NCBI GenBank assembly: GCA_900547555.1
Contig: URHG01000007.1
Location: 454 to 64,453, forward strand
Reading direction: 5' to 3'
Source of the DNA: an uncultured Porphyromonadaceae bacterium
GTDB lineage: Bacteria > Bacteroidota > Bacteroidia > Bacteroidales > UBA11471
Length of the DNA: 64,000 bases
The position numbers were made by a program, and so were the translations under genes. The notes beneath the pieces were generated by a model, which made no database searches, was not told the origin of the DNA, and saw nothing but the letters and a program-made list of their open reading frames with translations. The first letter of the stretch is position 1. Every line of letters starts with the position of its first letter. Below, in pieces: positions 11,934-59,102 of this stretch.

Positions 11934-12434
11934 ATGGCTACTGTAACTTTCAAAAGCACACCGGTACACACCGCCGGAGAATTACCCAAAGTCGGAACAA
12001 AAGCTCCGAAATTCGAATTGGTCAAAGGCGATCTTTCCACTCTCAAAAACGATGATTTAGCGGGCAAACGTGTTGTTCTGAATATCTTCCCGAGTCTCGA
12101 TACGAGTGTATGCGCCACCTCGGTACGCAAATTCAATCAACTGGCCGCAAAAATGGAAAATACGGTCGTACTGGCCGTATCGAAAGACCTGCCTTTTGCA
12201 CAAGGCCGCTTCTGTACGACCGAAGGTATCGACAATGTAATTCCCGTATCGGCTTTCCGTTCTGCGGAATTCGGTACAGGTTACGGTGTGGAACTTATCG
12301 ACGGCCCTCTCGCAGGACTTCTTTCCCGCGCCGTTGTCGTTCTCGACGAATCGGGTCAAATCATCTATGAAGAACTTGTTCCCGAAATTACTCATGAACC
12401 CGACTACGATGCAGCTGTCAAAGCATTGAAATAA
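11934..12434 (+). CDS. tpx: thiol peroxidase
   Basis: 166 aa. [12 protein letters not shown] carries the peroxidatic Cys context, with overall Tpx layout. Confidence 0.9.
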
Positions 12435-12448
12435 ATAAATAAATAAAC

Positions 12449-12484
12449 AACCGGCCCGATAGAAACATTTCTATCGGGCCGGTT
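12449..12484. terminator. intrinsic terminator hairpin between convergent tpx and nitroreductase genes
   Basis: AACCGGCCCGATAGAAA / TTTCTATCGGGCCGGTT, a perfect 17-bp stem. Confidence 0.7.
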
Positions 12485-12501
12485 CCCTATCAGAGCAATC
12501 T

Positions 12502-13104
12502 TCAACGGAATATTTTCAATCGGTAATCCAGCGGAGAAACTTCTTTTTCTCCGGGTTCTTGCAACGGATTGCCAAACGGCATTTGCGCATTCAACAACCA
12601 CGTTTGCGGCAGCCCCCATTCTTTACGAACCGCCTCATCTACCAACGGATTATAATGTTGCAATGATGCCCCGAAACCTACATCTTCCAACATCGTCCAC
12701 ACTGCCAGTTGGTGCATAGCAGCGGTTTGTTGCGACCAAACGGGAAAACGCTCGGCATAAGTCGGAAAAGATTTCTGCATCTGCTCTATAACTTCCGAAT
12801 CCTCAAAAAACAAGACAGTCCCGCAACCGGCAGCAAAAGACTTATCGATTTTCTGCTCGGTTTTCCTAAAACTTTCCGGCGGAACGATCTCCCGCAACGT
12901 CTCTTTGGTTATATTCCAAAAACGACGATGAGCATCGTCTATCAACAACACCAAACGGGTAGACTGGGTATTGAATGCCGAAGGAACATAAGTCAAGGCA
13001 TCATCAAGTATTTTTTTTACAACATCGTGCGACACAGGCGATTCATTTCCTATCGCATAATAACTCCGTCGATGTCGTAAGGCTTCTTCAAAATTTCGTT
13101 TCAT
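12502..13104 (-). CDS. nitroreductase family protein
   Basis: N-terminal RRSYY motif and a 200-aa nitroreductase-fold pattern. Confidence 0.8.
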   Translation of the reverse strand: MKRNFEEALRHRRSYYAIGNESPVSHDVVKKILDDALTYVPSAFNTQSTRLVLLIDDAHRRFWNITKETLREIVPPESFRKTEQKIDKSFAAGCGTVLFFEDSEVIEQMQKSFPTYAERFPVWSQQTAAMHQLAVWTMLEDVGFGASLQHYNPLVDEAVRKEWGLPQTWLLNAQMPFGNPLQEPGEKEVSPLDYRLKIFR

Positions 13105-13424
13105 AATAATTATTCTTATATCGTTTTATATAAACAAATAACCCTCTTCGTTGTTTCGATTATTCTCCATAAAGAAACAGATTTTATTTCAAAAAGCAAT
13201 TATCAACCACCATTTTTTTCAAAATAGTTTTTCCAATTCCGTACCATAAAAATTATGAAATCCCTATTTTACAGTCCATTAGTTCTTTCTTCAAGAATAT
13301 TTCCCATTTGATATACAACCAAAAATGCTCTTTCCCTGTTTATAATATAATAGTTCCTACAATAAAGGCGGAACTATCGGACAGATACTCATCTTACTGT
13401 CCCACTAAAAGAAAGAAAACAAAC

Positions 13425-45190: not shown

Positions 45191-46304
45191 ATGAAAAAAA
45201 ATTCTTATTGCATTCTCATTTTGTACTTCCTGTTTGTTTCTTTCAACGTATTCAGTATTAATGTATTCGACCAGGATAGAAAAAAGTTTTTCTCTTTTGA
45301 TGAAAAAATAATCAATGGTACTACCGGAACGCCCCTGGGTGGATTCGGTTGTGGCGGAATAAAATTCAATGCCAATACAGGTACGTTTGCAGTCATGACA
45401 GCCCCTCCGGCCGACGCTTACGATTTTATGGAGAAAAAGGGGACATACTTTCAACTATACACCGAACGAAACGGAAAAATAGAAACAAGAAAAATCTTAA
45501 CCGCCTCAAAAACAAATGATCGTCCGAACGACGATGCGATTTGGCCTTTGCACTTCGTAGATTTCGGTTGCATCAACGGCATACAAATATCATTGACCGG
45601 TATCTCACCATTGGATAACCAAAACTACGAAAACATGCATCTGCCCTATGCCCTATACGAAATCAGCCTCACCAATACAGGAAACACAGATGCGACAACG
45701 TCATTTGCTTTCCAATGGAACGACGATAAAACGCCTTTCATTAACCTACATAAAAAAGGATTTTACAATGACGAATGGTGTATTTTAGTGAAAAGCAATA
45801 TCGGAAAAGCAAAAATATCGATCGGCGATGATACCGACAACCACTTCTTATCCGACGGAGAATGTTCTCTATCCGACACCTCATCTCCGACAAGAAAAAT
45901 CGCTGTAAAAGCGACTTTAAATGCACATGAAACACAAAAAATACATCTTGTATTGGCTTGGTACAATCGAACGGATCCCGAAATAGCATTCTATAAAAAC
46001 AAATACCAAAATCCGAAAGGTATAGCAGAACATGGTATGAAGGTGTTCTCCTCCTTAAAAAACAATGCCGAAAAATTGGTAAACGGTATTCGAGAATCGA
46101 ACTTGCCCGATTGGTTAAAAAATCAGGCATTGAACACACTGGTCAATATCGTTACAAATTCCATGTACAAAAAAGACGGAAGAGTTGCATTCGCAGAAGG
46201 TCAATGGACCTGTTTTGGAACAATGGACCAAATGTGGTTATCGAGACAAATCATAAACATGTTGATACCCTATTATGCCTGGCAAGAACTCCACTACTGG
46301 GCAA
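45191..46304 (+). pseudogene. GH116-like (GBA2-type) glycosidase, 5' fragment interrupted by mobile element
   Basis: GTPLGGFGCGGIKFN resembles the GH116 N-terminal domain signature. The frame reads ...QELHYWA, then runs into foreign sequence and stops at 46322-46324. It continues in frame at 63281. Confidence 0.7.
46298..46304. repeat. left copy of 7-bp direct repeat TGGGCAA (target duplication / att core)
   Basis: An identical heptamer lies at 63281-63287, in the same reading-frame phase of the split gene. Confidence 0.65.
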
Positions 46305-46631
46305 CAAGATATAAAATTATATAACAAACTGATTTACTATATTTTATGGCGTGAATAAAAGAGTAGTTTTGTAATTTAGTACCATTTTAGCATCACTATT
46401 TAGCCATCGTAAATAGAATCAAGGGATGGCGCAAATGGCATAGGACAATTAACTTCTTTGGCTGCATAATCCACATTCGTTTACCGTCCTCAAATCAGTC
46501 AACACCTTCCGGAGATAATCAGACGGTTAATTTATAGCCACAACAAATAGATATTCGCTGATTTTATATTTGTATTGCGTAGTTTTTCTACAATAATCGT
46601 GTTTATAATTTGTTGTATGAGATTTTATTTG

Positions 46632-46667: not shown

Positions 46668-47966
46668 ATGATAGCAGAGTTCAGCATTGAGAATTTTTTC
46701 TCCATTAAGTCGGTTCAGAAAATCAGTTTTGAACCATCGGCAGATACTTATATGTCTGATGAGTACTCGTATGAAGTTAAGGACGGTGTAAGATTGCTGA
46801 AAGTGGGCATCATCTATGGTGCCAACGCTTCCGGTAAAACGAATATATTAAATGCCATTGAATTTTTCAAGATGCTGGTTTTGAGAATGCCTAAAGACAG
46901 GACTGAGAAAACCGGGGTTGTCCCTTTCATGTTAGATGACACTTCAAGAAACGAAAAGACAAAGATGTCAATGGTGTTCTATATCAATCAGTCGAAGTAC
47001 ATTCTTAGTTTTGAATTGGATGCAAAGCATATCTATTCCGAGACATTGATTGTTTATGATTCCATTCGCCCGACCAAGCTGTACAACCGAAGTTATGATG
47101 CCGCAACAGATTCCACGACCATTGACTTTGGCGTAAACCTGAAAATGACAAAGAAAAGCCAGGATGTGATTTCCGGCAACACTATCAATAATTGCAGTGT
47201 GCTTGCCGCATTTGGCAAAAGCAACGTGGAACGGACAAGGCTGAATGATGTGTACGATTATTTTGCCAAGCAGGTAAAAGATGTATTGGCTCCCGGTATG
47301 TTGCTTTCGGGATATGTCAAATCACGATTGGATAAAGACGAGGCAGGAGATTTGAAGAAATTCATTTTAAATTTCCTGAAAGCGTCCGATTTCAATATAG
47401 AAGATGTGGTATTACATGAAGAGGAAGAGCTGATTACACCTGAATTGGAACAACTGATTCAGAATGCCCCTATTGATAAAGATGCAAAGGCTGAAATGCT
47501 TAGAAAGGGGAAAATTACAAATACGGAACTGACCTTCAAGCATAAGGCAGGCGATAAAGTATATGATTTGTCGGAAGAATACGAGTCCAATGGCACCATG
47601 AGGTTCTTGGGAATGGCGGTGATACTGAATTTCTTGTTAAAGACCAATCGGTTTGTGCCCATTGATGAAGTGGAGACAAGTATTCATTATGAACTGTTGG
47701 CTTATTTCCTGAAAGTCTTTCTGGCAAACAGTAACGGAACATCCCAAATGCTTCTGACCACACACGACATCAATCTTCTCAACGAGGATTTCATTCGCCG
47801 TGATACGATATGGTTCACCGACAAAGACGAACTTGGCGAAACTAAAATAGTACGCCTATCTTCTTTGGGACTGCATAAGAATCTTTCCCCATACAATGCT
47901 TACAAGCAGGGAAAATTGGTAAAGTTGCCGTTCTTGGGTAGTCAGTATATCAACCTGAATGACTAA
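46668..47966 (+). CDS. AAA_21/ABC-type ATPase (AbiLi-like)
   Basis: Walker A GANASGKTN, Walker B-like VPIDEVETSIH, and LLTTHD (H-loop region). Confidence 0.75.
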   Translation: MIAEFSIENFFSIKSVQKISFEPSADTYMSDEYSYEVKDGVRLLKVGIIYGANASGKTNILNAIEFFKMLVLRMPKDRTEKTGVVPFMLDDTSRNEKTKMSMVFYINQSKYILSFELDAKHIYSETLIVYDSIRPTKLYNRSYDAATDSTTIDFGVNLKMTKKSQDVISGNTINNCSVLAAFGKSNVERTRLNDVYDYFAKQVKDVLAPGMLLSGYVKSRLDKDEAGDLKKFILNFLKASDFNIEDVVLHEEEELITPELEQLIQNAPIDKDAKAEMLRKGKITNTELTFKHKAGDKVYDLSEEYESNGTMRFLGMAVILNFLLKTNRFVPIDEVETSIHYELLAYFLKVFLANSNGTSQMLLTTHDINLLNEDFIRRDTIWFTDKDELGETKIVRLSSLGLHKNLSPYNAYKQGKLVKLPFLGSQYINLND

Positions 47967-48573
47967 TGATATGGGACGGACAGTAACAAAAAGTATCGCC
48001 ATCATAGGCGAAGGAGAAACGGAATGGTTCTATTTCGATTCTCTGAGAATTGCGTGTCGCTATCCTTTCAAGGTCGCTCCGGATTTTCCGCAGCATAGCG
48101 ACATCAATCATATACTGAAACTGGTAGAATCTTATTTGAACAAGCAATATGATTATATTGTATGCCTGTTTGATATGGACAGGCTGTATCAATATCCTTC
48201 CGAAATGCAGTTGTATCAGCGGGCAAAGAAAGAGTATAGCAAGAAGAAATATGCCGGAAAGGTGATGTTTATAGAAACGAATCCTTGCACGGAATTTTGG
48301 TTCTTGCTCCATTTCTTGCCTAATGTGGCCTGTCGGCGATATGAAAGTTACGACCAACTGCTTCCCGAATTGCAGAAATACATGCCGGGATATGAAAAGA
48401 CAAAACGATATTTCATACGCATCAACCTCTATAAATACCTGACAGAGAATGGTAATTTGGAACGGACGATGTTAAACTCAGAAAAGTTGTGCCAACTCTG
48501 CAAGGAATCGCCGGAGGATTTGAAGGCGTATTCGGAGGTACATAAGGTTATAAATCTGTTGAATAACGTGTAA
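47959..48573 (+). CDS. RloB-like protein (AbiLii-like)
   Basis: IAIIGEGETEWFYF matches the RloB N-terminal (C/G)EGxxTEx.YF motif. It overlaps the ATPase stop by 8 nt. Confidence 0.7.
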   Translation: MTNDMGRTVTKSIAIIGEGETEWFYFDSLRIACRYPFKVAPDFPQHSDINHILKLVESYLNKQYDYIVCLFDMDRLYQYPSEMQLYQRAKKEYSKKKYAGKVMFIETNPCTEFWFLLHFLPNVACRRYESYDQLLPELQKYMPGYEKTKRYFIRINLYKYLTENGNLERTMLNSEKLCQLCKESPEDLKAYSEVHKVINLLNNV

Positions 48574-48641: not shown

Positions 48642-50345
48642 ATGTCAAATAAAAATCTTACAAATAATCAACTTCTACTCAAAGAAATAATATCTCAAGA
48701 ATATGAAGACAACAATCAATTTGCCTCACTTGATACTTTTTTTGAATTATTTTCAGCGGGTCAAATATTAAAAGATTACGCATTTAGTAATGAAGAAATA
48801 GAAAGTGGCCTTACAGGCGGAGGAAATGATGGCGGTTGTGATACTGCCTACGTTCTCTTAAATAATGAAATTATTACTTCTGACCAAATAGAATCTCTTG
48901 ACTGTCCCAAGGGTTCATCTTTGCAGTTTATTATAATCCAGTCTAAGAATACATTGGGTTTTGGTGAAGATGCTATTATGAAATGGAAAACAATATCAGA
49001 TAATTTGTTAGAAATGTCTAATGACATAAACCAATATAAAGAAAGATATAGCGAGGGAATCAGAGATGTTTTCGTTTTGTTTCGCGACGCAATGACAAAA
49101 TTAATCACTAAGCAACTTAAAGTTTCTTTTAAGTATTATTACGTAACCTTGGGAATTGAAGTACATCCAAATGTATTGGCTCAGGCAGACGAACTTAAAG
49201 ATATTGTCCGAAAGAAATACCCTAGTGCTACAATTTCTGTACAGTTTGTAACAGCAGACGAACTAATGTTATTATATAATAGTGAACCTGATGTTAACAT
49301 AACTATAACTTTAGCCGACCAAGCTATTACACTTGGTAAACAGAATGAATATGTGACACTAATAAATATAGCAAACTACTATAAATTCATTACAGACTCC
49401 TCTGGTAATCTATTAAAAGGTATTTTTGAATCTAATGTTCGTGATTACCAAGGGAATAATTCGGTAAATTCATGCATAGCAAACACCTTAAAGAATAAAA
49501 ACGCAGAGGATTTTTGGTGGTTAAATAATGGTATTACCATATTGTCTGATAAAATCACGCCAATTACAAGCAAACAGTTATCTATTGATAATCCTGAAAT
49601 CGTTAATGGACTTCAAACGTCCACGGAGATATATAATTATTTTTCAGAAAACAAAGATAAGTTAGATAGTGAAAATAGGAATGTGCTTGTAAGATTTATA
49701 GTTCCAGATACAGAAGAGGTTCGTGATGATATTATATTTGCAACTAATAATCAAACCAATATCCCAAAATCTTCACTCAGAGTTACAGATGCAATACATC
49801 TCCAAATAGAGATGTTCTGTAAAACGAGAGGTTTATATTATGATAGGAGAAAGAATTATTATAAAAATCTCAAGAAAAAAGCTACAGATATTATTAGTGT
49901 ATCTTTCTTGGCTCAGTGTCTAATAACCCTATTATTAAGAAAACCAGATTTTGCTCGAGCACGACCATCAACATTGCTTACGGATGATAGAACATATAAT
50001 CAATTATATGCTGAGAATGGTAATTTATTAGTCTATTATAATGTTGGCAAACTCGGAAAGAAGGTGCAAGGCAATTTACGCAAGACGCCAGATTGGACCT
50101 CATCTGAAAAAAATGATGTACTATTTTATGTGCTATATGGTGTTGTTATAAAATTATTAGGTAAAACAGATATTAAACCTGTTGATATTGTAAACATAGA
50201 CTTAAATACAGTATCAGAAGAATTTATTGATTCAATAAAATGGAAGGTATATCATAAATACAAGGAATTGGGAGGCGATGGCCGTATTGCTAAAAGTCCT
50301 AATTTTATAACCTATATAGATAAAATTATAGGGGATAACGAATAA
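48642..50345 (+). CDS. AIPR (abortive infection phage resistance) family protein
   Basis: NVRDYQG...N, WWLNNGITI and IVNGLQTS motifs are typical of the AIPR C-terminal domain. Very AT-rich gene. Confidence 0.7.
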   Translation: MSNKNLTNNQLLLKEIISQEYEDNNQFASLDTFFELFSAGQILKDYAFSNEEIESGLTGGGNDGGCDTAYVLLNNEIITSDQIESLDCPKGSSLQFIIIQSKNTLGFGEDAIMKWKTISDNLLEMSNDINQYKERYSEGIRDVFVLFRDAMTKLITKQLKVSFKYYYVTLGIEVHPNVLAQADELKDIVRKKYPSATISVQFVTADELMLLYNSEPDVNITITLADQAITLGKQNEYVTLINIANYYKFITDSSGNLLKGIFESNVRDYQGNNSVNSCIANTLKNKNAEDFWWLNNGITILSDKITPITSKQLSIDNPEIVNGLQTSTEIYNYFSENKDKLDSENRNVLVRFIVPDTEEVRDDIIFATNNQTNIPKSSLRVTDAIHLQIEMFCKTRGLYYDRRKNYYKNLKKKATDIISVSFLAQCLITLLLRKPDFARARPSTLLTDDRTYNQLYAENGNLLVYYNVGKLGKKVQGNLRKTPDWTSSEKNDVLFYVLYGVVIKLLGKTDIKPVDIVNIDLNTVSEEFIDSIKWKVYHKYKELGGDGRIAKSPNFITYIDKIIGDNE

Positions 50346-50419: not shown

Positions 50420-50452
50420 AACGAGGGCAATAGTATGACGCTTGCCCTCGTT
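50420..50452. terminator. bidirectional terminator between the convergent AIPR and fusion genes
   Basis: AACGAGGGCAA ... TTGCCCTCGTT followed by TATTTTT. Confidence 0.65.
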
Positions 50453-50457
50453 TATTT

Positions 50458-53400
50458 TTACATCGGTTTTATCATTGATTCTATGAAAGTAATTTCTTCT
50501 TCTGAAAGTTCGTATTTCGCATAGAGTTGTCGGTCAATTTCGGCAACACTCTTTTCCCAATCAATGTCGGATTTTGAGGTAAAGTCTTGCAACGGAACAA
50601 AACGCCACGTTTCTTTACTATTATCTTGTGTAACTTTCAATATTCCAAGCAATGTTCTGGCAAATTTAGATTTGACATATTTCAGAGCAGCCATAGCTTC
50701 TGTTTGTTCATTAAATGTACCAATCCCTATAAAGGATTGCGTATAACCGATTAACGGTTCACCGATTAACGGAGTTGACAGCACCTCTCCTATAGCTCCA
50801 GTACCATTACTTTTAGGAACTATAACTTTCCATTTACCTAAACAAGGATGGTCTTCGATGAATGACGAATTTATCCATCTAATCTCTCTGACATTCTTTA
50901 TCAAACCAAGCATTTCAATATCCTCAGCCTGCATTTTTTGCACATGGAATATTTCACTAAGCCCAAAAATGGAAGTAGTTAAACGACGTTCATTACCATT
51001 GCTGCCAATTCTCGATTTTAATTCTGGATGTTCTTTATAAAGAATGCTTAAATCAAATTTGTTTTGCGGATATATAATGTTGCTTAAAGGAGTAAAGGTC
51101 TCATTATTAGCGACCACCTTTCGGTAAATACCATTAAGTTCTGAATATGCTGTAAATGAGCCAATCTTTCCAAAAGAGTAATTAGCGTCACGATAGCATA
51201 CAGCAACACCTCCTTTTATATCAACATTTGGGAAAACATCTGTACTTTTTGCTTTATACCATATTATCTTAAAATGCTCATCGTTAAGCATTTTAAGATT
51301 CCAATCATGGGGTGTCTTGCCTGCATCAAACAGATAACGTGCGGGAGTAATAAGAGTAGCCTTGTCTGATATTCTAAATGAGACATCCATAAAATAGTTG
51401 TAAACTGGAGTGTCGCTTGTCCGTTCTGTTATTATCTGATACGGTGGATTCCCCACTATCGCATTGATTTTCATATTCTTTATTCCTGTTCTGTCCGTAA
51501 TAAATTTATCTACCTGCTTGATAAAATGTTCCGGTTTGTTTTTGATTTGATTGATTAAGTCCTCGAAGTATCGGGTGTTTACCTTTGCTTTTCGGAAACC
51601 TATAAGGGTGCGTTTGGTAATGCTCTTTGCCATCGGAGTTTTGCAGATGACAAAGATGTTTTCAGCCACTACCTTGTCCCATATTCGTTGTTCATCTTCG
51701 ATACTTGACACCGAAAATAATGAGTTCTTGACCCTTGTGCGATAAATGCTATATGCCATATAAAGAGGATATAATCCAGACTTTGAATTTATTTCAAGGA
51801 TTCGTGAATCTGGGGCAAACACATTGGCTGTCACTTCGCCACGGTCAATGAAACGAGGGTCGGACAAGGTGGTTTCATAGTCCTTTTCAAAGAAGTTATA
51901 TCCTCCCAAACAATCGCCAAGGTGCATGTTCACCACACGCCAAGGCGTAAGCACCGTTTCCTTGTCGGGATTGCGGAACGTGCTGAATATATCCGTTATA
52001 CGCTCGATGCGTTCCTCCACACTAAGTTTGTCCGCGGCACGAGCCATGGCACGGATGCGCTTGCCTGCCGCACAGAATATCTCCGGATCGTAATATTTCT
52101 TTATGCTGTTGAACTTCTGTTTGGTTACGCCTTTGGGCATGAACTCCTCCCATGACTGAGAGTCAATGAGGGAAGCGAAGTTGTCAATGGTTATCTCTTG
52201 TGATTCATCTTGTAACTCTGCACCGTAGATAAGCAACGGCATACGGATGGAGATACCCCGAAGAATGGAGATGGCAGCCTCGCGGTTCTCCTTTTTCTTC
52301 TTTAGTTCCGCGAGACGCTGCTTTTCTTCCTCTGTCAATGGTTGCTTGTCCCTGCCTCTCTTCTTGGATTTCTTTTCAAGGTCTTCAAGTTCCTCGTATT
52401 GCTCATCGGTCAGTCCTTGGTTGTTGATGTCCACCTGATTGGTCTTTGGCATTGCCTTGGTTTGGCCGATAATCTTTTTCAGGTCGTCAAACTCCTGCAA
52501 TTCCAAGTCGTTGAGCTTCATCAACTCGTCATTATACAGGCTCCTGTCCTCGAAACCGTTGCGGACAACCCTTTCCACATAAACACGTTTAAGCTGTTCC
52601 AACATCTTGGGTACATCGAACTGGCTCATCTTGGAGCCTTCGATGGAGATAATCGGACAGAAGTTCAGGAACTCGCCCATAATCTTACGGTCGTTGCCGC
52701 TGGTCTTTCCTGCCTTGGCAGAAATCTTTGCTGTCTCGGCAATGACTTTCAGTGTTCTGTCAGGAGCGAAGTCAAACACATAACACTGCTCTTTGACCCT
52801 TCCGTTGATGGTGGCAGGTGTCTGCACACGGAAGATGGTCTGCATATAACTTGATGTGGCGGTATTATAAGAGCCGGACAACATGAATACGCCCGTCCAC
52901 GCCTTGACACTGACACCCGTGGTCAATCGTCCGCAAGACAAGGTAATGGTACGGGTGGCATCAGGGTCTTTGCCGATGGCTTCTTCCACCGCAGCAAGAG
53001 CATCCTTGCTCTCTTCGTCCTCGTCACCGTCTCCTGCCACATTCACCACCTTGAAATGCTGGAATACAGGATGTGATTGTAGTAAAGCACTCATGGCACG
53101 AGCCTCCTTCACACCCGGCAACATCCATAGCGTATGACGGAAGATGTTGCGGTATTCCTCGTTGGCAAACGGATAGCAACTGTCCTTGTCCTCCTTGGAG
53201 ATAAGATTCAAAAATGCCTTCACATCTTTTTCATGGATGAAAGTTCCGTTATCATTGACCCGAAAAAACTCTCGGAAGTTGAAAGCCACATCTTCATCCA
53301 CGAACTCATGGAGTAAGCGTCCAAGGTCGTAGGTATAGATGTTCATCGTAGGTAGAGAGGCGTATGGATTCGGATCACCGAAATGGGTCAAATCCCATGA

Positions 53401-54426
53401 AGCCTTTGCCCGTTGCTCCATCACATAGTCCCAAGTGTAAATCTCGTCCTCCTTGAAGTCGTCCAACAGGTTGAACGGAGTGCCGGAAAGTCGCAGTATC
53501 TTTGTATTTGCTTTTGTCAGTTCCTGCATGACAGCCTTGCCGAGTTCCGTCTGTGTCCCTTCGTGCGCCTCGTCCACGATGATGCAATCCCAAGCTGTGG
53601 CAAACACTTCATTGTTCTTGTCGAAGTTGCCGCCCACAAGTTCAGAACCGCGCAAATCCTGCATGGAAGCGAAATACACATATTGGCATTTGCCCTGTTT
53701 TGCTCTCGCTTCAAGTGAAGCATGGCTGTCACCATTGTTCTTTGAGCCGTATGCAAAACAGGGACAGTCATAGAATATCTTGCCGAAATCCTCGAACCAG
53801 CCGCTATCCACCACAGGGCGATGAGTAAGAATCAAAGTGCGGCTGAAATCCATGTCTTTCACCACCTGCAAGGCCGACAATGTCTTGCCGAAACGCATCT
53901 TGGCGTTCCAAAGCATCTGGTTACTTTTCCTGAATTGCTTCTTGGTCTTTTCGATGGCTTCCCGTTGTTCGGGACGGAACACAATCGGTGTTTGGTCGTG
54001 TGAGACTTCGGCAGAAGACAACGATTCCCGACCTTCCTTTACGGCTGTTATTGCCCGCTTGACGGTTTCAAGGTCGGTGATGAACCACTCGTTGGCTTTG
54101 TTCTCGGTATCGAATATCTTTTTCCTAATGCCGGAACGTTCCAAAACGCTATGTACTTCCTTGTCGTTGAAAGAGCACAAGCCCTTTTTGCTGTTGTATA
54201 TCGTAAGTTCCGTATATAAGAGGTCGTATGCAATGCCTGCCGTTTGCGTATATTGGTTGATACGTTTCTTCGCGGACTCGTTGAGAGCCTTGCTGTTCGG
54301 AGCAAGACCGAAGACATTGTCATTGTCACAAGTGGCCTCGCCCACTTTCAGGCATCCCCTGTGTGCAGCATCATTGATGCGGAACACATATATCAGTTTT
54401 AATTTTAGTGAAGATGTGAATTTCAT
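50458..54426 (-). CDS. fusion protein: T5orf172/GIY-YIG-like domain, SF2 DEAH helicase, K/E-rich linker, TaqI/Eco57I-like N6-adenine methyltransferase, TaqI_C-like TRD
   Basis: aa 11-30 LIYVF...LKVGE and aa 112-115 NEWF fit T5orf172. Helicase: AKMRFGKT (175-182), DEAH (285-288), SGTP (314-317), QTIFRVQTP (529-537). Charged linker about 675-716. MTase: motif X-like ETVLTPWRVVNM (823-834), motif I-like ILEINSKSGLYPL (876-888; compare M.TaqI VLEPACAHGPFL), NPPY (993-996). C-terminal LYAKYELSEEEITFIE resembles TaqI_C-type TRD ends. Confidence 0.8.
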   Translation of the reverse strand: MKFTSSLKLKLIYVFRINDAAHRGCLKVGEATCDNDNVFGLAPNSKALNESAKKRINQYTQTAGIAYDLLYTELTIYNSKKGLCSFNDKEVHSVLERSGIRKKIFDTENKANEWFITDLETVKRAITAVKEGRESLSSAEVSHDQTPIVFRPEQREAIEKTKKQFRKSNQMLWNAKMRFGKTLSALQVVKDMDFSRTLILTHRPVVDSGWFEDFGKIFYDCPCFAYGSKNNGDSHASLEARAKQGKCQYVYFASMQDLRGSELVGGNFDKNNEVFATAWDCIIVDEAHEGTQTELGKAVMQELTKANTKILRLSGTPFNLLDDFKEDEIYTWDYVMEQRAKASWDLTHFGDPNPYASLPTMNIYTYDLGRLLHEFVDEDVAFNFREFFRVNDNGTFIHEKDVKAFLNLISKEDKDSCYPFANEEYRNIFRHTLWMLPGVKEARAMSALLQSHPVFQHFKVVNVAGDGDEDEESKDALAAVEEAIGKDPDATRTITLSCGRLTTGVSVKAWTGVFMLSGSYNTATSSYMQTIFRVQTPATINGRVKEQCYVFDFAPDRTLKVIAETAKISAKAGKTSGNDRKIMGEFLNFCPIISIEGSKMSQFDVPKMLEQLKRVYVERVVRNGFEDRSLYNDELMKLNDLELQEFDDLKKIIGQTKAMPKTNQVDINNQGLTDEQYEELEDLEKKSKKRGRDKQPLTEEEKQRLAELKKKKENREAAISILRGISIRMPLLIYGAELQDESQEITIDNFASLIDSQSWEEFMPKGVTKQKFNSIKKYYDPEIFCAAGKRIRAMARAADKLSVEERIERITDIFSTFRNPDKETVLTPWRVVNMHLGDCLGGYNFFEKDYETTLSDPRFIDRGEVTANVFAPDSRILEINSKSGLYPLYMAYSIYRTRVKNSLFSVSSIEDEQRIWDKVVAENIFVICKTPMAKSITKRTLIGFRKAKVNTRYFEDLINQIKNKPEHFIKQVDKFITDRTGIKNMKINAIVGNPPYQIITERTSDTPVYNYFMDVSFRISDKATLITPARYLFDAGKTPHDWNLKMLNDEHFKIIWYKAKSTDVFPNVDIKGGVAVCYRDANYSFGKIGSFTAYSELNGIYRKVVANNETFTPLSNIIYPQNKFDLSILYKEHPELKSRIGSNGNERRLTTSIFGLSEIFHVQKMQAEDIEMLGLIKNVREIRWINSSFIEDHPCLGKWKVIVPKSNGTGAIGEVLSTPLIGEPLIGYTQSFIGIGTFNEQTEAMAALKYVKSKFARTLLGILKVTQDNSKETWRFVPLQDFTSKSDIDWEKSVAEIDRQLYAKYELSEEEITFIESMIKPM

Positions 54427-54432
54427 ACTGCA

Positions 54433-55449
54433 CTATTTTATGAGGTCGATAAATCGGATTCGTTTTCCCATCTTTCCCGCTTCAGGGTCTTTGGCCCGCC
54501 AGTCCTTGATTTGGCAATAGATACCATTATGCCTGCGGATGTCATCTTTCTGACAGCCTTCGCATTGACTGACTTCTTCCCTTGTCCCGAACAAGTCGGC
54601 TACAATAGTCCGGCGTTCACCGCAACTGTTTGGGATGACACCTTTAAGCCCGTCCATCTGCCAGACGTTCCATGAAATGATGTAGGCGATATAATTGATG
54701 GATTTCAACAAGGGTCGCTTGCCGAACTTTTGTTGATAGTATTCGATAAAGGAAATAAGCATGGATTCACGGGCAATCAGCAAGTTATCGCCTTGCCATT
54801 CGTAAGCGTAAATGCTCTTATACGCTTCCTGTACCCATTCCAACCATTTGCCGGAAGTTTCCGTATTTTCGCCTACAATCCGCAACTTGCGGTCAAGCAG
54901 CCCGATACGCTGTTCTAAGGGAATAGCCTCCCCCGTTGTGGTGTCATATCTGCTTATAATATACGGGGCTTCCCCGCAGGTTATCTCCAATCGGTTGTCA
55001 CGTACATAATCTTTCCAAGTCTTACCTTCCGGAAATTGAATTTTCTCTGAGTTGGGTCTCCACCGATGACAACCCTGTTCGTCGGTGTACTCCGTATTGA
55101 ACACATCCTTTCTTCCAAACCATGCTTCATCGATCAGGTTGTTCTGCGCATTGCATATCCATGACGGAGTGAACACCTCTGCCATTTCTCGCGAACGTGC
55201 GGTTTGGGTGTCACGACTTTTGAGAATACGCGGCATGATGACATGCCCGTTATCTCCAGTAATAAGACAGGGAAGAATTGGCGAATCATATTGATACCCT
55301 TCGCCCAGATATTCATAATCGGAAGTAGCCCAAAAGATATTGCGCTGAATATCCTCCTTGCTCGTCGTATGGTCTTTGAGCAGGATATTCAACAGTTCGG
55401 GCGAAAGCCGAAAGATACTATCTTCCAATATATCAACTTCAACAGGCAT
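54433..55449 (-). CDS. methyltransferase N-lobe-like protein lacking the NPPY catalytic motif, with a C-terminal Cys cluster
   Basis: AEVFTPSWICN (90-100) resembles motif X. LEITCGEAPYI (154-164) aligns with M.TaqI LEPACAHGPFL. IYAYEWQGDNLLIARESML resembles motifs II/III. No (D/N)PP(Y/F/W). C-x19-C-x2-C-x12-C at 276-312. Its stop is 6 nt from the start of the fusion gene. Confidence 0.5.
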   Translation of the reverse strand: MPVEVDILEDSIFRLSPELLNILLKDHTTSKEDIQRNIFWATSDYEYLGEGYQYDSPILPCLITGDNGHVIMPRILKSRDTQTARSREMAEVFTPSWICNAQNNLIDEAWFGRKDVFNTEYTDEQGCHRWRPNSEKIQFPEGKTWKDYVRDNRLEITCGEAPYIISRYDTTTGEAIPLEQRIGLLDRKLRIVGENTETSGKWLEWVQEAYKSIYAYEWQGDNLLIARESMLISFIEYYQQKFGKRPLLKSINYIAYIISWNVWQMDGLKGVIPNSCGERRTIVADLFGTREEVSQCEGCQKDDIRRHNGIYCQIKDWRAKDPEAGKMGKRIRFIDLIK

Positions 55450-55469: not shown

Positions 55470-55485
55470 ATCTCTTGATAAGAGA
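55470..55485. repeat. left inverted repeat ATCTCTTGATAAGAGA
   Basis: Perfect reverse complement of 55646-55661, checked base by base. Confidence 0.9.
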
Positions 55486-55645
55486 GCCATCCCGAAGAAA
55501 TAAGCACTAATAATCAGTGCTATAAGAACCCGATTTGACGGATTTACAAAACAGATCCTCGCAAAATACCTTTCATATATCATTATAAATGAGGATTGAA
55601 CACGGTTTTTGAAATATTATGCGTACCTTTGCGAAATAAACTATA

Positions 55646-55661
55646 TCTCTTATCAAGAGAT
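55646..55661. repeat. right inverted repeat TCTCTTATCAAGAGAT
   Basis: Reverse complement of 55470-55485. Confidence 0.9.
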
Positions 55662-55700: not shown

Positions 55701-56912
55701 TCAAAAATCTTTCAGGATAAGGCTGTTCGCCTTGTCCACCACGCTTGTGTCAAGCGATGCGAGATAGATGCGCGTGGTCTCTTCCGAATCATGTCCCATG
55801 CCCTCACTGATGACAGAAAGAGGGATGTTCTTGCTCTTGGCAACGCTCGCCCAACAATGCCGGGCAACGTGCATGGTCAGCGGTATGTTCAATCCTGCCA
55901 GACCAGCGACTTCCTTCAACGCCACATTGATGCGGCAGATGGCGTTACGGTATTGTGTCCGCTCATCGGAGCATGGGTTGGTGATTATCGGCAGGAGGTA
56001 GCGGGTGGCCGTATTCTCGCCGTACTTGGCGATGATGTCTTCCATGCACTTCTCCCATTTGACTGTGAGCTGCTGCCCGGTCTTTCTTCTACGGTACGTG
56101 ATTATTCCGTTCTTCAAATCCGATTTTTTCAGATAGGCCATATCAATGAATGACATGCCACGGGTATAAAAGGAGAAGAGGAACATATCCCTTGCATAGT
56201 CCAGATGCGGTTTCAGAGTCAAATCAAGTTCCTTAATGTGCTTGATGGACTTCAATGGAATGGCGCGTTTTACCGTCTTCCCGATGCCAGTGTAAACGTG
56301 CTTGAAAGGATGCTTCTGTTCCGTCAGTTCCTTTTCCACGGCACGGTTGTAAACGGCACGGAGTATGCGCATATAAAAGGAAACCGTGTTGGGGCAGATG
56401 CCCTTGCCTTTGAGCCAGGCCTCGTAAAGCATCATGGTGTTGCCGTCTATCTCGCACAAGAGTATGTCCTGCCCCTCACGGAACTTCATAAAACTGCCCA
56501 ATGCCGCCGTATAGGTTTCTGATGTGCGGACTTTGCCAAGCTGCTTCAACTGTCCTATGATGCCTTGCATGAAACGGAACAGCGATTGTTCGCCCGTTTG
56601 CCCGTTGAACTTCTCGACGATGCTGTCAGCGGAATAAATTCCTCCCTGCCTGTCGCATTGGGCGACTATGGCTTTCAACCGTCCGGTGTCCCAGTCGATA
56701 TGTTCCGCCACTTCACGGAGATACCGTTTTCTATTTTCGCCGATTTCGGGCAGGATTTTAACAGAGGAAGTTCTCTTGTCCCATTCCGTATCAAATATGC
56801 GGTAGTCCGTCTTGACTTGGCGGACTATGCGCCCGTGGATTACCTGATAATATATGCTGCCCTCCCTGCCGCTCGCGGTGGAAGGACGAAATTTCACTTT
56901 TATGGATGCCAT
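55701..56912 (-). CDS. tyrosine-type site-specific recombinase (Bacteroidales integrase family)
   Basis: N-terminal arm-binding-like MASIKVKFRPS...GSIYYQV. Catalytic HVARHCWAS...GH...TRIY. Confidence 0.85.
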   Translation of the reverse strand: MASIKVKFRPSTASGREGSIYYQVIHGRIVRQVKTDYRIFDTEWDKRTSSVKILPEIGENRKRYLREVAEHIDWDTGRLKAIVAQCDRQGGIYSADSIVEKFNGQTGEQSLFRFMQGIIGQLKQLGKVRTSETYTAALGSFMKFREGQDILLCEIDGNTMMLYEAWLKGKGICPNTVSFYMRILRAVYNRAVEKELTEQKHPFKHVYTGIGKTVKRAIPLKSIKHIKELDLTLKPHLDYARDMFLFSFYTRGMSFIDMAYLKKSDLKNGIITYRRRKTGQQLTVKWEKCMEDIIAKYGENTATRYLLPIITNPCSDERTQYRNAICRINVALKEVAGLAGLNIPLTMHVARHCWASVAKSKNIPLSVISEGMGHDSEETTRIYLASLDTSVVDKANSLILKDF

Positions 56913-56917
56913 TCACT

Positions 56918-57706
56918 TTATTTTTGTTGTTTGGATTGTTTTTCTTCCTCTCTCACTGTCTTGACTTGCCGGTTGAATATGGCCAGCGTGGAGTCCACAC
57001 CGACAACATCCACCAGTTTCTCGTAAGCCCCGACAGTTACTGCCAGTTCCGGGTACAGTTCGTTGAGCATGACCGTGGTCACATGGTGTTTGTCTGCAAC
57101 CGTTCTCAACCGCCTGTTTTCTTCCCGGTACTCATGCCATTGTACCCAACTGACGGCAAACAGGACAAAGAATACGAGCGTACAGCCCATGCCAGTCCAT
57201 ACATATGGGTTCTTGTGCCAGCCATCGGGAACTTTGCTCCATAACAGCCTTATTGCATTTATTGCCTTGTCCGAGCGGATTATCTGCCATAGTTCCGATA
57301 TGACACTTTGCTTTTGCCGCACCTGTTCCGAAGTCTGCTTGTCTTTTTCCACATGGGCAGTCAGCATTTCCAATATTTTGTTGAGCAGTTCCTTGATAGT
57401 GGGAACTCCGTGCTTACGCATATCCTTCTCGTTGGCTTCGGTGTATAACCGCAGACTTGCTACCGCTTCATCACCTATTGATTGCTTGTATTCCTCGATG
57501 GTCTCTTTGCTTCCGAAAATGTCATTGACATTTTCCGGGGCATTGCCATTGAAGAACCGTATAACAGGCTCCAACTTCGCTTCCAGTCTTTTCAATGCCT
57601 CGTTCTTGTCCGGGCTATCCTTTGCGTCCAGTTTTTTCTTGATTTCCTCGATGTCCACTGCCAATGCCCCGATAAGGTCGGTTAAGTTCTGCTTGTTGTC
57701 CTTCAT
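56918..57706 (-). CDS. hypothetical coiled-coil / membrane protein in the mobilization operon
   Basis: Overlaps the relaxase stop by 4 nt. One hydrophobic helix (GMGCTLVFFVLFAVSWV). No recognisable motif. Confidence 0.4.
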   Translation of the reverse strand: MKDNKQNLTDLIGALAVDIEEIKKKLDAKDSPDKNEALKRLEAKLEPVIRFFNGNAPENVNDIFGSKETIEEYKQSIGDEAVASLRLYTEANEKDMRKHGVPTIKELLNKILEMLTAHVEKDKQTSEQVRQKQSVISELWQIIRSDKAINAIRLLWSKVPDGWHKNPYVWTGMGCTLVFFVLFAVSWVQWHEYREENRRLRTVADKHHVTTVMLNELYPELAVTVGAYEKLVDVVGVDSTLAIFNRQVKTVREEEKQSKQQK

Positions 57707-58755
57707 CTTTTTCTCCTCCTTGGTTTATGTTTGTCCTTTTCGTTGTCATTCTCGCCCCAGCCGCTTTCGTTTCTTCCACCTCCGCCGCCGGATGACACCT
57801 TGGCTTGGTGCGGTTGCACGCACAACTCCATGAGTGTGCCGATGGTCACTTGAACGATGTTTGAACTGGGTTCAGCAGGGATGCTTCCGTTGCCGTCCAC
57901 TTCCGCTTTGGCCGGTGACGGCTCTCTTATAAAAGTATCAGCCGTATTGTTGTGGAATCCCACATCCTGCCGGGTCGGTTGTGGCTGTTCTTGCACACGG
58001 GGCTTCCATTCCATGCCCTCTGCGATTTGGTTCCCGAAGAGCCTGTTCAACTTATAAAAACTCATACTCCGGTCTATCTGTGAGCCACTGAACGAGATTT
58101 CATTCTTCGTGAACGATACTCCGATGATTTTACCTTCGTTTCTATTGTATTTGAAATTCACCCCGATACCCTGTTTTGCCAGCCTGTCACACAAATCCGA
58201 CCAGCAGTTGCAATGGGGTAATGCCGCCTTGATAGCATCATAGATTTGGTATTTCACCTTGTCCTTGCCACGCAGACGGTCACGCTTCACGTTCATCTTG
58301 CCCTTGGAGAAGTGCAGTCCGTATTCCCTCGTGAGAGCTTTGCATACTTTTACATTACGCACATTATCGTTGCTGTCACTGATGGTGTTCCCGTCATTGT
58401 CCACCCTGTTGGCCACGATATGCAGATGCTGGTGTTCCCTGTCGGTATGACGGCACACGATGTACTGGGTGTTCGTTATGCCCATGCGCCGCATATATTC
58501 ACGGGCAATTTCGACCATCAGGGCATCCGTCAGCTTGGGTGCATCCTCGTGTGCGAAGTCCAGCGAAATATGGTACACCGGATTTTTCAGCTTGCGTCCC
58601 GGCTTGTCATCCGCCTGTCCCTGCATACTCCTTGCGATGGTGGTGTTGTCATCCTGTCTCACGTCCTTACTGTCGATAAGCCTTGCCTTCTTCGGGTTGT
58701 TCACGTAGTTCACCACTCTGGCGAAACTCGCCCGTTTTTTCAAATCGCCCATCAT
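57703..58755 (-). CDS. relaxase / mobilization nuclease
   Basis: HISLDF and the histidine triad HTDREHQHLHIVANRV. Overlaps MobC by 4 nt. Confidence 0.85.
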   Translation of the reverse strand: MMGDLKKRASFARVVNYVNNPKKARLIDSKDVRQDDNTTIARSMQGQADDKPGRKLKNPVYHISLDFAHEDAPKLTDALMVEIAREYMRRMGITNTQYIVCRHTDREHQHLHIVANRVDNDGNTISDSNDNVRNVKVCKALTREYGLHFSKGKMNVKRDRLRGKDKVKYQIYDAIKAALPHCNCWSDLCDRLAKQGIGVNFKYNRNEGKIIGVSFTKNEISFSGSQIDRSMSFYKLNRLFGNQIAEGMEWKPRVQEQPQPTRQDVGFHNNTADTFIREPSPAKAEVDGNGSIPAEPSSNIVQVTIGTLMELCVQPHQAKVSSGGGGGRNESGWGENDNEKDKHKPRRRKR

Positions 58756-59102
58756 ATCCTCTCGATGATTTTATTGAACTCGTCCAGCAAGTCCATGATT
58801 TTGCCTTTCAAAAGAGAAAAGCCCTGTTGGTGCGCCATCTTCGTCAGTTGGTTCAGGTTGTTGCATCCTCCCTCCAGCATCCTTATCTGCTGCCTGTCTT
58901 CCTGTGTCCGTGCAGACACAACCTTGCCGTATAATAACAAATCACGCAGGAAGTGTGACGGTTTCTTTCCTGTATCTGTTATCCGTTTCATGACCGCTTT
59001 CCATTCGGCAAGCGTGAGCCGTGTGGATATGGTCTTTGTCCGCGCCTTGCCTTTCACCGTTTTTGGGCGGCCTCCCTTGTTCCTGTTCTCCTGATATGTC
59101 AT
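58752..59102 (-). CDS. MobC-family relaxosome accessory protein
   Basis: RHH-like ISTRLTLAEWKAV and GGCNNLNQLTKMAHQ (the MobC NxNQ motif). Confidence 0.8.
   Translation of the reverse strand: MTYQENRNKGGRPKTVKGKARTKTISTRLTLAEWKAVMKRITDTGKKPSHFLRDLLLYGKVVSARTQEDRQQIRMLEGGCNNLNQLTKMAHQQGFSLLKGKIMDLLDEFNKIIERI

Follow-up and report, generated by a model that had tools for sequence, protein, structure and literature searches.

What does a 338-aa protein that resembles only half of a DNA methyltransferase do next to a 1322-aa fusion of nuclease, helicase, and methylase? The question is raised by two adjacent minus-strand genes in a 64,000-nt stretch of DNA from an uncultured Porphyromonadaceae bacterium (assembly GCA_900547555.1, contig URHG01000007.1, positions 454 to 64,453), referred to below as the window. 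According to the original prediction, made from the sequence alone, they form a candidate new defence operon that could be assigned to no named system. Both open reading frames (ORFs), the 6-nt gap between the small gene and the large gene downstream of it (junction TAG-TGCAGT-ATG), the quoted motifs, and the domain order are all present in the sequence. In the large protein the motifs are LIYVF 11, LKVGE 26, NEWF 112, GKT 180, DEAH 285-288, and SGTP 314 in the first half, and TVLTPWRVV 824, ILEINSKSGLYPL 876, NPPY 993-996, and LITPARYL 1025 in the second. As for the function of the pair, it most likely encodes two subunits of one phase-variable, ATP-dependent, Type ISP-like restriction-modification (R-M) enzyme. 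The coordinates of all features are collected in Table 1.

The small protein and the modules of the large one

Pfam reports no match to the small protein, and no nuclease family matches it either. Its relatives include many proteins of 650-711 aa, the first ~320 residues of which align with it at 42-52% identity, and which continue past this point with KFDxVIGNPPYQ, PAR(W/F), and then a C-terminal half. The AlphaFold model of relative P0320 (53 sequences; predicted local distance difference test, pLDDT, 85.5; predicted template modelling score, pTM, 0.83) represents a complete gamma-class methylase, for which a Foldseek search against PDB returns CamA over the full length, as well as BrxX/PglX, BpuSI, M.BseCI, MmeI, and TaqI. 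Most residues of motif X are invariant not only among the small proteins (alignment A1) but also in alignments A2 and A3, which take in full-length methylases, and AEVFTP sits before helix 93-108 of the P0320 model. Motif I residues E155, C158, G159, E160, and P162 are invariant in small proteins and full-length methylases, and the segment corresponds to model strand 144-147 and the loop that follows. In the motif II region, E217 corresponds to E208 of P0320, the final residue of model strand 204-208. In the motif III region, to which model strand 253-255 corresponds, N261, Q264, M265, and G267 are invariant and D266 is nearly so in both gene arrangements described below. The residues of motifs I, II, and III are invariant or nearly so in free and fused lobes alike.

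By its sequence, the small protein is identified as the S-adenosylmethionine (AdoMet)-binding lobe (motifs X, I, II, and III; strands beta1-beta3) of a CamA/TaqI-like methylase, hereafter lobe N. That it comprises only the AdoMet-binding lobe of the methylase family and lacks NPPY had been proposed originally, and is borne out by its collinearity with full-length methylases and by the P0320 model. Catalytic motif IV, (D/N/S)PP(Y/F/W), by which a methylase is recognised, is absent, and therefore the protein cannot methylate DNA on its own. The placement by MAFFT of its end, RFIDLIK, as strand beta4 was rejected, because the W-x3-K-x3-F pattern shared with P0320 and the Enterococcus small protein fix the register such that the lobe ends a few residues before beta4. 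The Cys/His cluster, which is also found in most full-length relatives and is absent from the Enterococcus plasmid version, probably forms a zinc ribbon, with presumed zinc binding, inserted before the end of the lobe. A model of the small protein alone (15 close homologues; pLDDT 64) was discarded as uninformative. Sequence searches against PDB gave nothing useful for the small protein, for a profile of small and full-length relatives, or for a profile of the methylase region of the sister fusion lineage.

Relatives of the small protein are named 'restriction endonuclease subunit M' by NCBI, and some copies on Enterococcus and Pediococcus plasmids are named 'restriction endonuclease'. The idea that the small protein is the actual endonuclease, to which this plasmid annotation alone points, is very improbable: the protein is collinear with the AdoMet lobe of complete methylases, has no nuclease family match, and is accompanied by a large subunit that already has a conserved T5orf172 nuclease domain.

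Regarding the large protein, Pfam reports Eco57I at residues 922-1065 (4.6e-23) and ResIII at residues 149-318 (1e-13), while MUG113 and T5orf172 match residues 53-128 below threshold only. The T5orf172 score of the window protein alone is 19.7 bits against a cut-off of 20. Among the N-terminal domains of relatives, T5orf172 is matched by 14 of 16 and MUG113 by 8 of 16 (best E-value ~1e-7), and residues Y13, K27, G29, D88, H92, and E113 are invariant across three lineages. These matches and residues bear out the T5orf172/GIY-YIG-like N-terminal module of the original prediction, and the assignment to a nuclease of this superfamily is, on sequence grounds, solid at family level. The superfamily 2 (SF2) helicase proposed next to it is likewise confirmed by Pfam ResIII and by conserved GKT, DEAH, and SGTP. 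Helicase and methylase motifs are almost invariant across 54 relatives, and the Lys/Glu-rich linker that follows the helicase differs in length among lineages.

The linker leads into a second lobe, N', which consists of a helical part followed by motifs X' (TVLTPWRVV 824), I' (LEINSKSGLY 877), II' (IFVICKT 924), and a III'-like YFEDL (~953). Positions 1-67 of the Pfam Eco57I model correspond to residues 922-990, i.e., to the last part of N'. Together, N' and the NPPY half present the motif order X-I-II-III-IV of a gamma-class methylase. Residues 983-1322 are 43% identical to the C-terminal half of the single-chain methylase P0315 (E-value 2e-83; hhalign E-value 3e-36). As for the TaqI_C-like C-terminal region of the original prediction, Pfam detects no such domain, while the likeness itself is retained in the model of a relative with a homologous half, which aligns with CamA over the full length and matches TaqI.

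In several close relatives (L005, L009, and L017) similarity to the fusion stops near residue ~1080, as after a swap of the target-recognition domain (TRD), which suggests that the TRD has been replaced between close relatives. Near the operon, L029 (15238-16275 and 19392-19769), L007 (2568-2873), and L067 (16335-16466) contain further segments that partly match the NPPY/TRD or the C-terminal region of the fusion; these may represent other methylase genes or silent cassettes for recognition domains. Within the 64-kb window, neither a second gene copy nor a silent TRD cassette is found.

A sister system and the co-conservation of the pair

Among the relatives of the small protein, six genes for single-chain methylases (M) were examined, and all six are followed by a gene for a ResIII protein (R) of ~1100-1130 aa. 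M and R mostly overlap or abut, and in one case (L089) a PDDEXK_9/AAA-ATPase_like gene lies between them. Pfam reports weak or faint MUG113/T5orf172 matches in 2 of the 6 R proteins, and a scan of N-terminal domains bears out T5orf172 in those R proteins that it covered. Over residues 1-633 of the large subunit R shows 33% identity (E-value 6e-95), and it also aligns with residues 709-946, where NQIFTPKW corresponds to ETVLTPWR, KSGLY to KSGLY, and VYGLAPT to IFVICKT. All six R proteins end where the window protein runs on into KINAIVGNPPYQ, the start of beta4. Because R aligns through X', I', and II' and stops at beta4, it ends in a second, diverged AdoMet-lobe-like domain, the same N' as in the large subunit. 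When N is compared with N' by hhalign, motifs X and I fall in register; the E-value is 0.09 and improves to 0.002 as sequences are added. Since BLASTP finds no significant similarity between the small and the large protein, the relation between the two lobes is remote and rests on hhalign.

Thus, the same modules are found in two wirings. In wiring a, the first gene encodes M, i.e., lobe N joined to the NPPY-TRD half, and the second encodes R, which has the order nuclease-helicase-N'. In wiring b, that of the window, the first gene encodes N alone and the second nuclease-helicase-N'-NPPY-TRD. Because N is fused to NPPY-TRD in M and R ends at N', the window pair is an M+R system in which the NPPY-TRD half has been relocated and sits on R, not on M. 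Compared with these uncharacterised M+R systems every module is homologous: the first half of M is 43-52% identical to the small subunit and the second half 43% to residues 983-1322, and R, at the 33% identity given above, carries N'. The difference is that in M+R systems NPPY-TRD is attached to lobe N in M, and the orphan lobe is N' instead of N. Each wiring leaves one lobe without a catalytic half (N' in wiring a, N in wiring b), yet this lobe is conserved.

A natural split of M was considered as evidence for complementation in trans and was rejected, as the only case with adjacent N-lobe and NPPY-TRD genes is a disruption by IS256 and proves nothing. This case, L091 (6932-13747 of the Bifidobacterium longum plasmid NZ_CP065398), is of the two-gene M+R form, and its methylase gene is interrupted by IS256. 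Lobe N carries the annotation 'restriction endonuclease subunit M' and the NPPY-TRD part 'Eco57I ... methylase', and the helicase gene follows. Disruption is therefore another source of half-methylase entries in databases.

The co-conservation of the 338-aa gene with the fusion, whose absence would refute the original prediction by that prediction's own account, was assessed in 80 genome loci retrieved with the small protein (63-97% identical, almost all from Bacteroidota) and in 80 metagenome loci for which only the nuclease-helicase part of the large protein served as query; 74 of the latter are evaluable upstream. The fusion gene lies directly downstream of the small gene in 74 of the 80 genome loci, and of the other six loci, four break off within 200 nt of the small gene. 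Conversely, the small gene precedes the fusion in all 74 evaluable metagenome loci, mostly with the same 6-nt spacing. The pair is an obligate module. In four genome loci (L011, L052, L056, and L058) the fusion downstream of the small gene belongs to a sister lineage with only 23-24% identity over the helicase part, so that the small gene is kept with two or three divergent fusion lineages.

According to the sequence comparisons, the small protein is also the most conserved part of the system. In L011, L052, and L056, where identity between the fusion partners drops to 23-24% over the helicase part, the small proteins are still 66-83% identical, and ~130 alignment columns are invariant among small proteins down to 69% identity. 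Nine comparisons of the small gene with relatives give ratios of nonsynonymous to synonymous substitution rates (dN/dS) of 0.05-0.11, and the ORF is intact, at 330-340 aa, in nearly all of the 160 loci. These values bear on the suggestion that the small ORF is a functionless, decaying remnant of a methylase gene truncated by rearrangement, for which the origin of N-lobe-only entries by disruption, as on the B. longum plasmid, may be invoked. A decaying remnant is expected neither to show such a dN/dS and such invariant columns and intact frames, nor to be retained with divergent fusion lineages. Because of these selection and co-occurrence data, this explanation is effectively refuted.

The family is not restricted to Bacteroidota, since plasmids of Enterococcus faecium and Pediococcus carry the same pair, and over its full length the fusion of E. 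faecium is 41% identical to that of the window. In a neighbour-joining tree of N lobes (no bootstrap) the free lobes of Lactobacillales are placed apart from those of Bacteroidota. Both the small-protein and the large-protein family are very abundant, with at least 8000 candidates in each search. Among the matches listed, the small-protein family comprises 1728 clusters at 50% identity with E <= 0.001, and some clusters at 90% identity contain hundreds to thousands of member sequences. Among the R-M-like cargoes carried by mobile elements of gut Bacteroidales, the module ranks with the commoner ones.

Some loci deviate from the usual layout. One clear orphan small-lobe gene is present among the 80 genome loci, in a Capnocytophaga metagenome-assembled genome (L061, 10001-10996): the gene is intact, no fusion is found within 10 kb downstream, and genes for an outer-membrane protein, DcuC, and a rhomboid protein come next. 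A Fic/DOC gene lies between the small gene and the sister-lineage fusion in L056 (10998-12131) and L058 (7802-8890). On Enterococcus plasmids a DUF262 gene follows the pair (L092, E. faecium plasmid, 12125-13369), and the fusion of L092 carries an additional N-terminal extension of ~118 aa.

Proposed mechanism and relation to known systems

Which of the two lobes binds AdoMet in the window enzyme can be approached by comparing their motifs. The small protein keeps every AdoMet-motif residue of its catalytically complete relatives, and its glycine loop and beta2 acid are canonical or near-canonical. In N', the glycine loop contains Lys (SKSG, SKQG, or MKSG in the three fusion lineages and R), and the acidic residue that ends beta2 is missing (ICKT, AIPT, or GLAPT, likewise). 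Judged in this way, N' has neither a canonical glycine loop nor the beta2 acid and looks AdoMet-deficient in all three lineages. Because the small subunit retains all AdoMet-motif residues, shows the highest conservation in the system, and is paired with an N' of this kind, it is somewhat probable that it provides the functional AdoMet-binding site of the enzyme.

Several points weigh against this assignment. The apparent AdoMet deficiency of N' concerns two motif positions only. In the large subunit X', I', II', III', and IV follow each other in canonical order, and the Eco57I match is continuous over the N'/NPPY junction; thus, the large subunit might be self-sufficient as a methylase, with no need for an AdoMet role of the small subunit. 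A Foldseek search with the model of the free small protein (the one of pLDDT 64) gives no match below an E-value of 0.5, and sequence searches against PDB return no match to the large protein, N' included. Targeted literature searches found no experiment on any member of the family. In the DnmA (YeeA)-YeeB-YeeC system of Bacillus subtilis, which is compared with the window pair below, neither restriction nor phage protection was observed (PMC9973331).

Accordingly worded as a full alternative, the large protein would be a self-sufficient Type ISP-like enzyme with an active N'-NPPY domain, and the small protein a structural or regulatory stub with no AdoMet role; it could, for example, be the remnant of a second methylase, like M.Eco57I beside R.Eco57I, kept for docking or stabilising. 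Besides the continuous Eco57I match over 922-1065, this alternative can point to the canonical order and spacing of X' to IV in each of the three fusion lineages, with the PDLC03626 type (IVTP, LDIASKQGEF, LYAIPTS, FSDF, and GNPPYQ) as the clearest example, and to the fact that characterised Type ISP enzymes work without a partner (PMC4666363). A mere docking stub, however, is not expected to keep all AdoMet-motif residues or to be the most conserved part of the system, and the missing beta2 acid and the Lys of the glycine loop in N' are shared by the R subunits, where N' cannot be catalytic. Self-sufficiency of the large protein is therefore regarded as unlikely, if still a serious contender.

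Under the preferred reading, with the small subunit as the functional AdoMet lobe, the small subunit would dock on the methylase part of the large one and either complete the active site in trans or serve as an AdoMet-dependent control on an intact N'-NPPY domain. By analogy with Type ISP and related enzymes (PMC4666363, PMC3553950, PMC2731913), the TRD and NPPY pocket would recognise an asymmetric site, and methylation of one adenine on one strand of this site would protect host DNA. Unmethylated sites would start ATP-driven translocation, after which the T5orf172 nuclease would cut. The 160-bp invertible promoter described below would switch the operon on and off. A further, tentative possibility is that lobe exchange decides between modification and restriction: pairing of NPPY-TRD with N would lead to methylation, and pairing with the helicase-tethered, AdoMet-deficient N' would report an unmodified site to the motor and lead to restriction. 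If true, this would explain why the catalytic half is tolerated on either lobe (M+R vs small+fusion).

Regarding known systems, the statement that the pair could be assigned to no named system does not hold. PADLOC-DB assigns the small protein over its full length to MTase_II PDLC03390 (4e-124), and the large protein to REase_MTase_IIG PDLC03626 (1e-53, in three stretches) and to MTase_II PDLC03375, the whole 348-position profile of which matches residues 986-1322. The PDLC03626 model represents the sister fusion lineage, with full-length matches to L011 and L056 at E=0. NCBIfam gives no relevant match to either protein. As automatic tools would label the locus Type IIG R-M with a Type II methyltransferase, and the families are abundant, it is not an unplaced system or a candidate new operon, but an R-M system of a recognised, though unstudied, kind. 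Helicase- and GIY-YIG-containing relatives of MmeI and Type ISP enzymes were pointed out in 2009 and 2012 and were said to have been little studied (PMC2731913, PMC3553950). Literature searches found no study of the family, of a half-methylase partner, of a split methyltransferase in R-M, or of DUF4041 together with T5orf172. Thus, the enzyme class is known, and the split of the AdoMet lobe as a separate small protein is apparently undescribed.

The closest likeness in domain order is to Type ISP enzymes, a family of plasmid- or mobile-element-borne phage defences (PMC4666363, PMC3553950), which the original prediction had named. Both have a nuclease, an SF2 helicase-like motor, a connecting region, a gamma-class adenine methylase, and a recognition domain in the same order: in the window protein the motor (ResIII 149-318) lies between nuclease and methylase, and the C-terminal part is an N6-adenine methylase of this class with a TRD (Eco57I 922-1065, NPPY 993; P0320 folds like CamA/TaqI). 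In contrast, the Mrr/PD-(D/E)xK nuclease of Type ISP enzymes is replaced by T5orf172/MUG113 of the GIY-YIG superfamily, a single self-sufficient polypeptide by a large protein with an obligate free AdoMet lobe (presumably needed for function), and the N' inside the large protein deviates at motifs I and II. Type ISP enzymes are further characterised by ATP-dependent translocation, by cleavage that depends on collision, and by methylation of one strand. Type IIG enzymes (Eco57I, BpuSI, and MmeI) likewise combine an Eco57I Pfam methylase and a nuclease in one chain, and the Eco57I system also has a separate methylase gene. They have, however, a PD-(D/E)xK nuclease and no ATP-driven motor, whereas a ~500-aa SF2 helicase is present here, and the separate 'methylase' of the window lacks the catalytic motif.

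In terms of parts, the window pair may also be likened to DnmA-YeeB-YeeC, which combines an MmeI-like, TRD-bearing gamma-class methylase with a helicase and a GIY-YIG/T5orf172 protein. Such clusters are located in defence islands and are predicted to be R-M systems with single-strand modification (PMC2731913, PMC9973331). Unlike the window pair, they consist of three separate genes, with an MmeI-like methylase that has its own N-terminal domain and no free half-methylase, whereas the window has two genes, an Eco57I/CamA-like methylase, and a nuclease fused to the helicase. As for split methyltransferases in general, M.AquI and M.EcoHK31I are naturally split DNA methyltransferases, and METTL3-METTL14 is a pair of an active and a pseudo-methylase. 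They resemble the window pair in that the fold is distributed over two polypeptides or that an incomplete methylase-like partner is needed for activity, but they are C5-cytosine or RNA methylases. To our knowledge, none of them is coupled to a motor-nuclease, and none has a catalytic half that alternates between paralogous AdoMet lobes.

Genomic context and implications

The inverton control suggested in the original prediction is supported by perfect inverted repeats between the integrase and the small gene and by the orientation of the segment between them across assemblies. Between identical arms, other assemblies carry this 160-nt segment, at ~95% identity, in either orientation: it is inverted relative to the window in L096 and L101, and has the orientation of the window in L001, L039, L094, L100, L105, and L152. 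The Bacteroides-type -7 box inside the segment points away from the operon; therefore, the window appears to show the OFF orientation. A homologous -7 box (TATCTTTG) faces the small gene in L007 and L052. Control of the operon by a 160-bp invertible promoter is thus supported, with promoter activity treated as putative because the spacing of the -7 box to the upstream -33 TTTG is non-canonical. In L002 (9794-9980) the same 15-bp arms precede the small gene, but the 157 nt between them are unrelated, and in L003 the arms are 417 nt apart. The conserved feature of the inverton is its arms, not its content.

Phase variation leads to the question of whether the operon mainly serves epigenetic regulation, as a phasevarion, or encodes a methylase with a motor that does not restrict, instead of a system of anti-phage or anti-plasmid restriction. 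Apart from the inverton itself, the B. subtilis result given above speaks for this view, as does the observation that many methylases on Bacteroides mobile elements appear silent in laboratory growth (PMC10333322). It is at odds with the nuclease residues and helicase motifs, which are invariant or nearly so across relatives, with the location of the operon next to AbiL and AbiU among the cargo genes of a mobilizable element, and with the replacement of the TRD, which is typical of R-M arms races. Moreover, deletion of a dnmA or yeeB homologue in Vibrio raised the sensitivity to some phages, according to work cited in PMC9973331. A mainly epigenetic role is thus improbable.

A defence island on a mobile element, as proposed originally, is found around the operon. 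On one side it is adjoined by the AbiLi/AbiLii pair and AbiU, which are convergent with it and make up, together with it, a three-system defence cargo; on the other side are the integrase, the relaxase, and the MobC/NikA-like protein. The operon is the last cargo of this mobilizable element. The element backbone (55701-59102, minus strand) also encodes a 262-aa protein without any family match. Just ahead of the defence cargo and next to a glycoside hydrolase family 115 (GH115) gene, the match of a 377-aa ORF (45191-46324, plus strand) to glycoside hydrolase family 116 is limited to the N-terminal part of that family; the ORF may be a gene truncated by insertion of the element. The stem-loop directly after the stop codon of the large gene is likely a terminator candidate common to this gene and the convergent AbiU gene; as the terminator scan of the window does not list it, this function is putative.

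Table 1. Features of the operon and its surroundings, in window coordinates (residue numbers refer to the protein named)
Feature	Position	Strand	Description or basis
Large subunit gene (1322 aa)	50458..54426	-	T5orf172 nuclease, SF2 helicase, linker, lobe N', NPPY catalytic half, TRD
T5orf172/GIY-YIG-superfamily nuclease domain (large residues 8-128)	54043..54405	-	Assigned from Pfam on relatives and invariant residues
SF2 helicase/translocase (large residues ~149-640)	52507..53982	-	Pfam ResIII 1e-13; Walker A GKT 180, DEAH 285, SGTP 314
Lys/Glu-rich linker (large residues ~670-716)	52279..52419	-	Read from sequence
Lobe N' (large residues ~717-985)	51472..52278	-	Conserved in 54 relatives; homologous to C-terminal ~250 aa of R subunits
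Methylase catalytic half (large residues ~986-1090)	51157..51471	-	beta4 KINAIVG, NPPY 993-996, PARYL 1028
Target-recognition region and conserved C-terminal helix (large residues ~1091-1322)	50458..51156	-	Fold of homologous region in P0320
Small subunit gene (338 aa)	54433..55449	-	Putative detached AdoMet-binding lobe N of gamma-class N6-adenine methyltransferase; ends before beta4/NPPY
Motif X AEVFTPSW (small residues 90-97)	55159..55182	-	E91, V92, F93, T94, P95, W97 invariant in alignment A1
Motif I LEITCGEAPY (small residues 154-163)	54961..54990	-	beta1 and glycine loop
Motif II region YAYEWQGD (small residues 214-221)	54787..54810	-	E217 at end of beta2
Motif III region WNVWQMDG (small residues 260-267)	54649..54672	-	D266 follows beta3
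Cys/His cluster C276, C296, C299, H307, C312 (small residues)	54514..54624	-	Invariant in alignment A1
Stem-loop ACGAGGGCAA ... TTGCCCTCGT	50421..50451	-	Directly after large-gene stop codon; read from sequence
Inverton	55470..55661	.	Perfect 16-bp inverted repeats 55470-55485 and 55646-55661, 160 nt between; between integrase and small gene
Bacteroides-type -7 box TACCTTTG	55624..55631	+	Inside invertible segment; points away from operon (pattern scan)
AbiLi/AbiLii pair	46668-48573	+	AbiLi 7.6e-68, AbiLii 1.9e-18; Pfam AAA_21 and RloB
AbiU/AIPR gene	48642-50345	+	1e-187
Tyrosine integrase	55701-56912	-	Arm-DNA-bind_5 and SAM_5 domains
MobA/VirD2 relaxase	57703-58755	-	
NikA/MobC-like gene	58752-59102	-	

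In automatic annotation the small protein is labelled as a methyltransferase or as a restriction endonuclease, and by its sequence it can be neither on its own. Therefore, methylome-to-gene assignments and defence censuses that count it as a methylase are probably wrong. What makes the system unusual is that one AdoMet lobe is both free and conserved, and that the catalytic half has in evolution been joined to one or the other of two paralogous lobes. The two wirings represent a natural experiment on the coupling of motor-nuclease and methylase and on the role of the conserved half-methylase, and the inverton would allow the operon to be cleanly switched ON or OFF in experiments. Should the active site be completed or gated by the small lobe, protection of the host would depend on the assembly of two subunits, which would be a control principle undescribed for Type I, III, or ISP enzymes.

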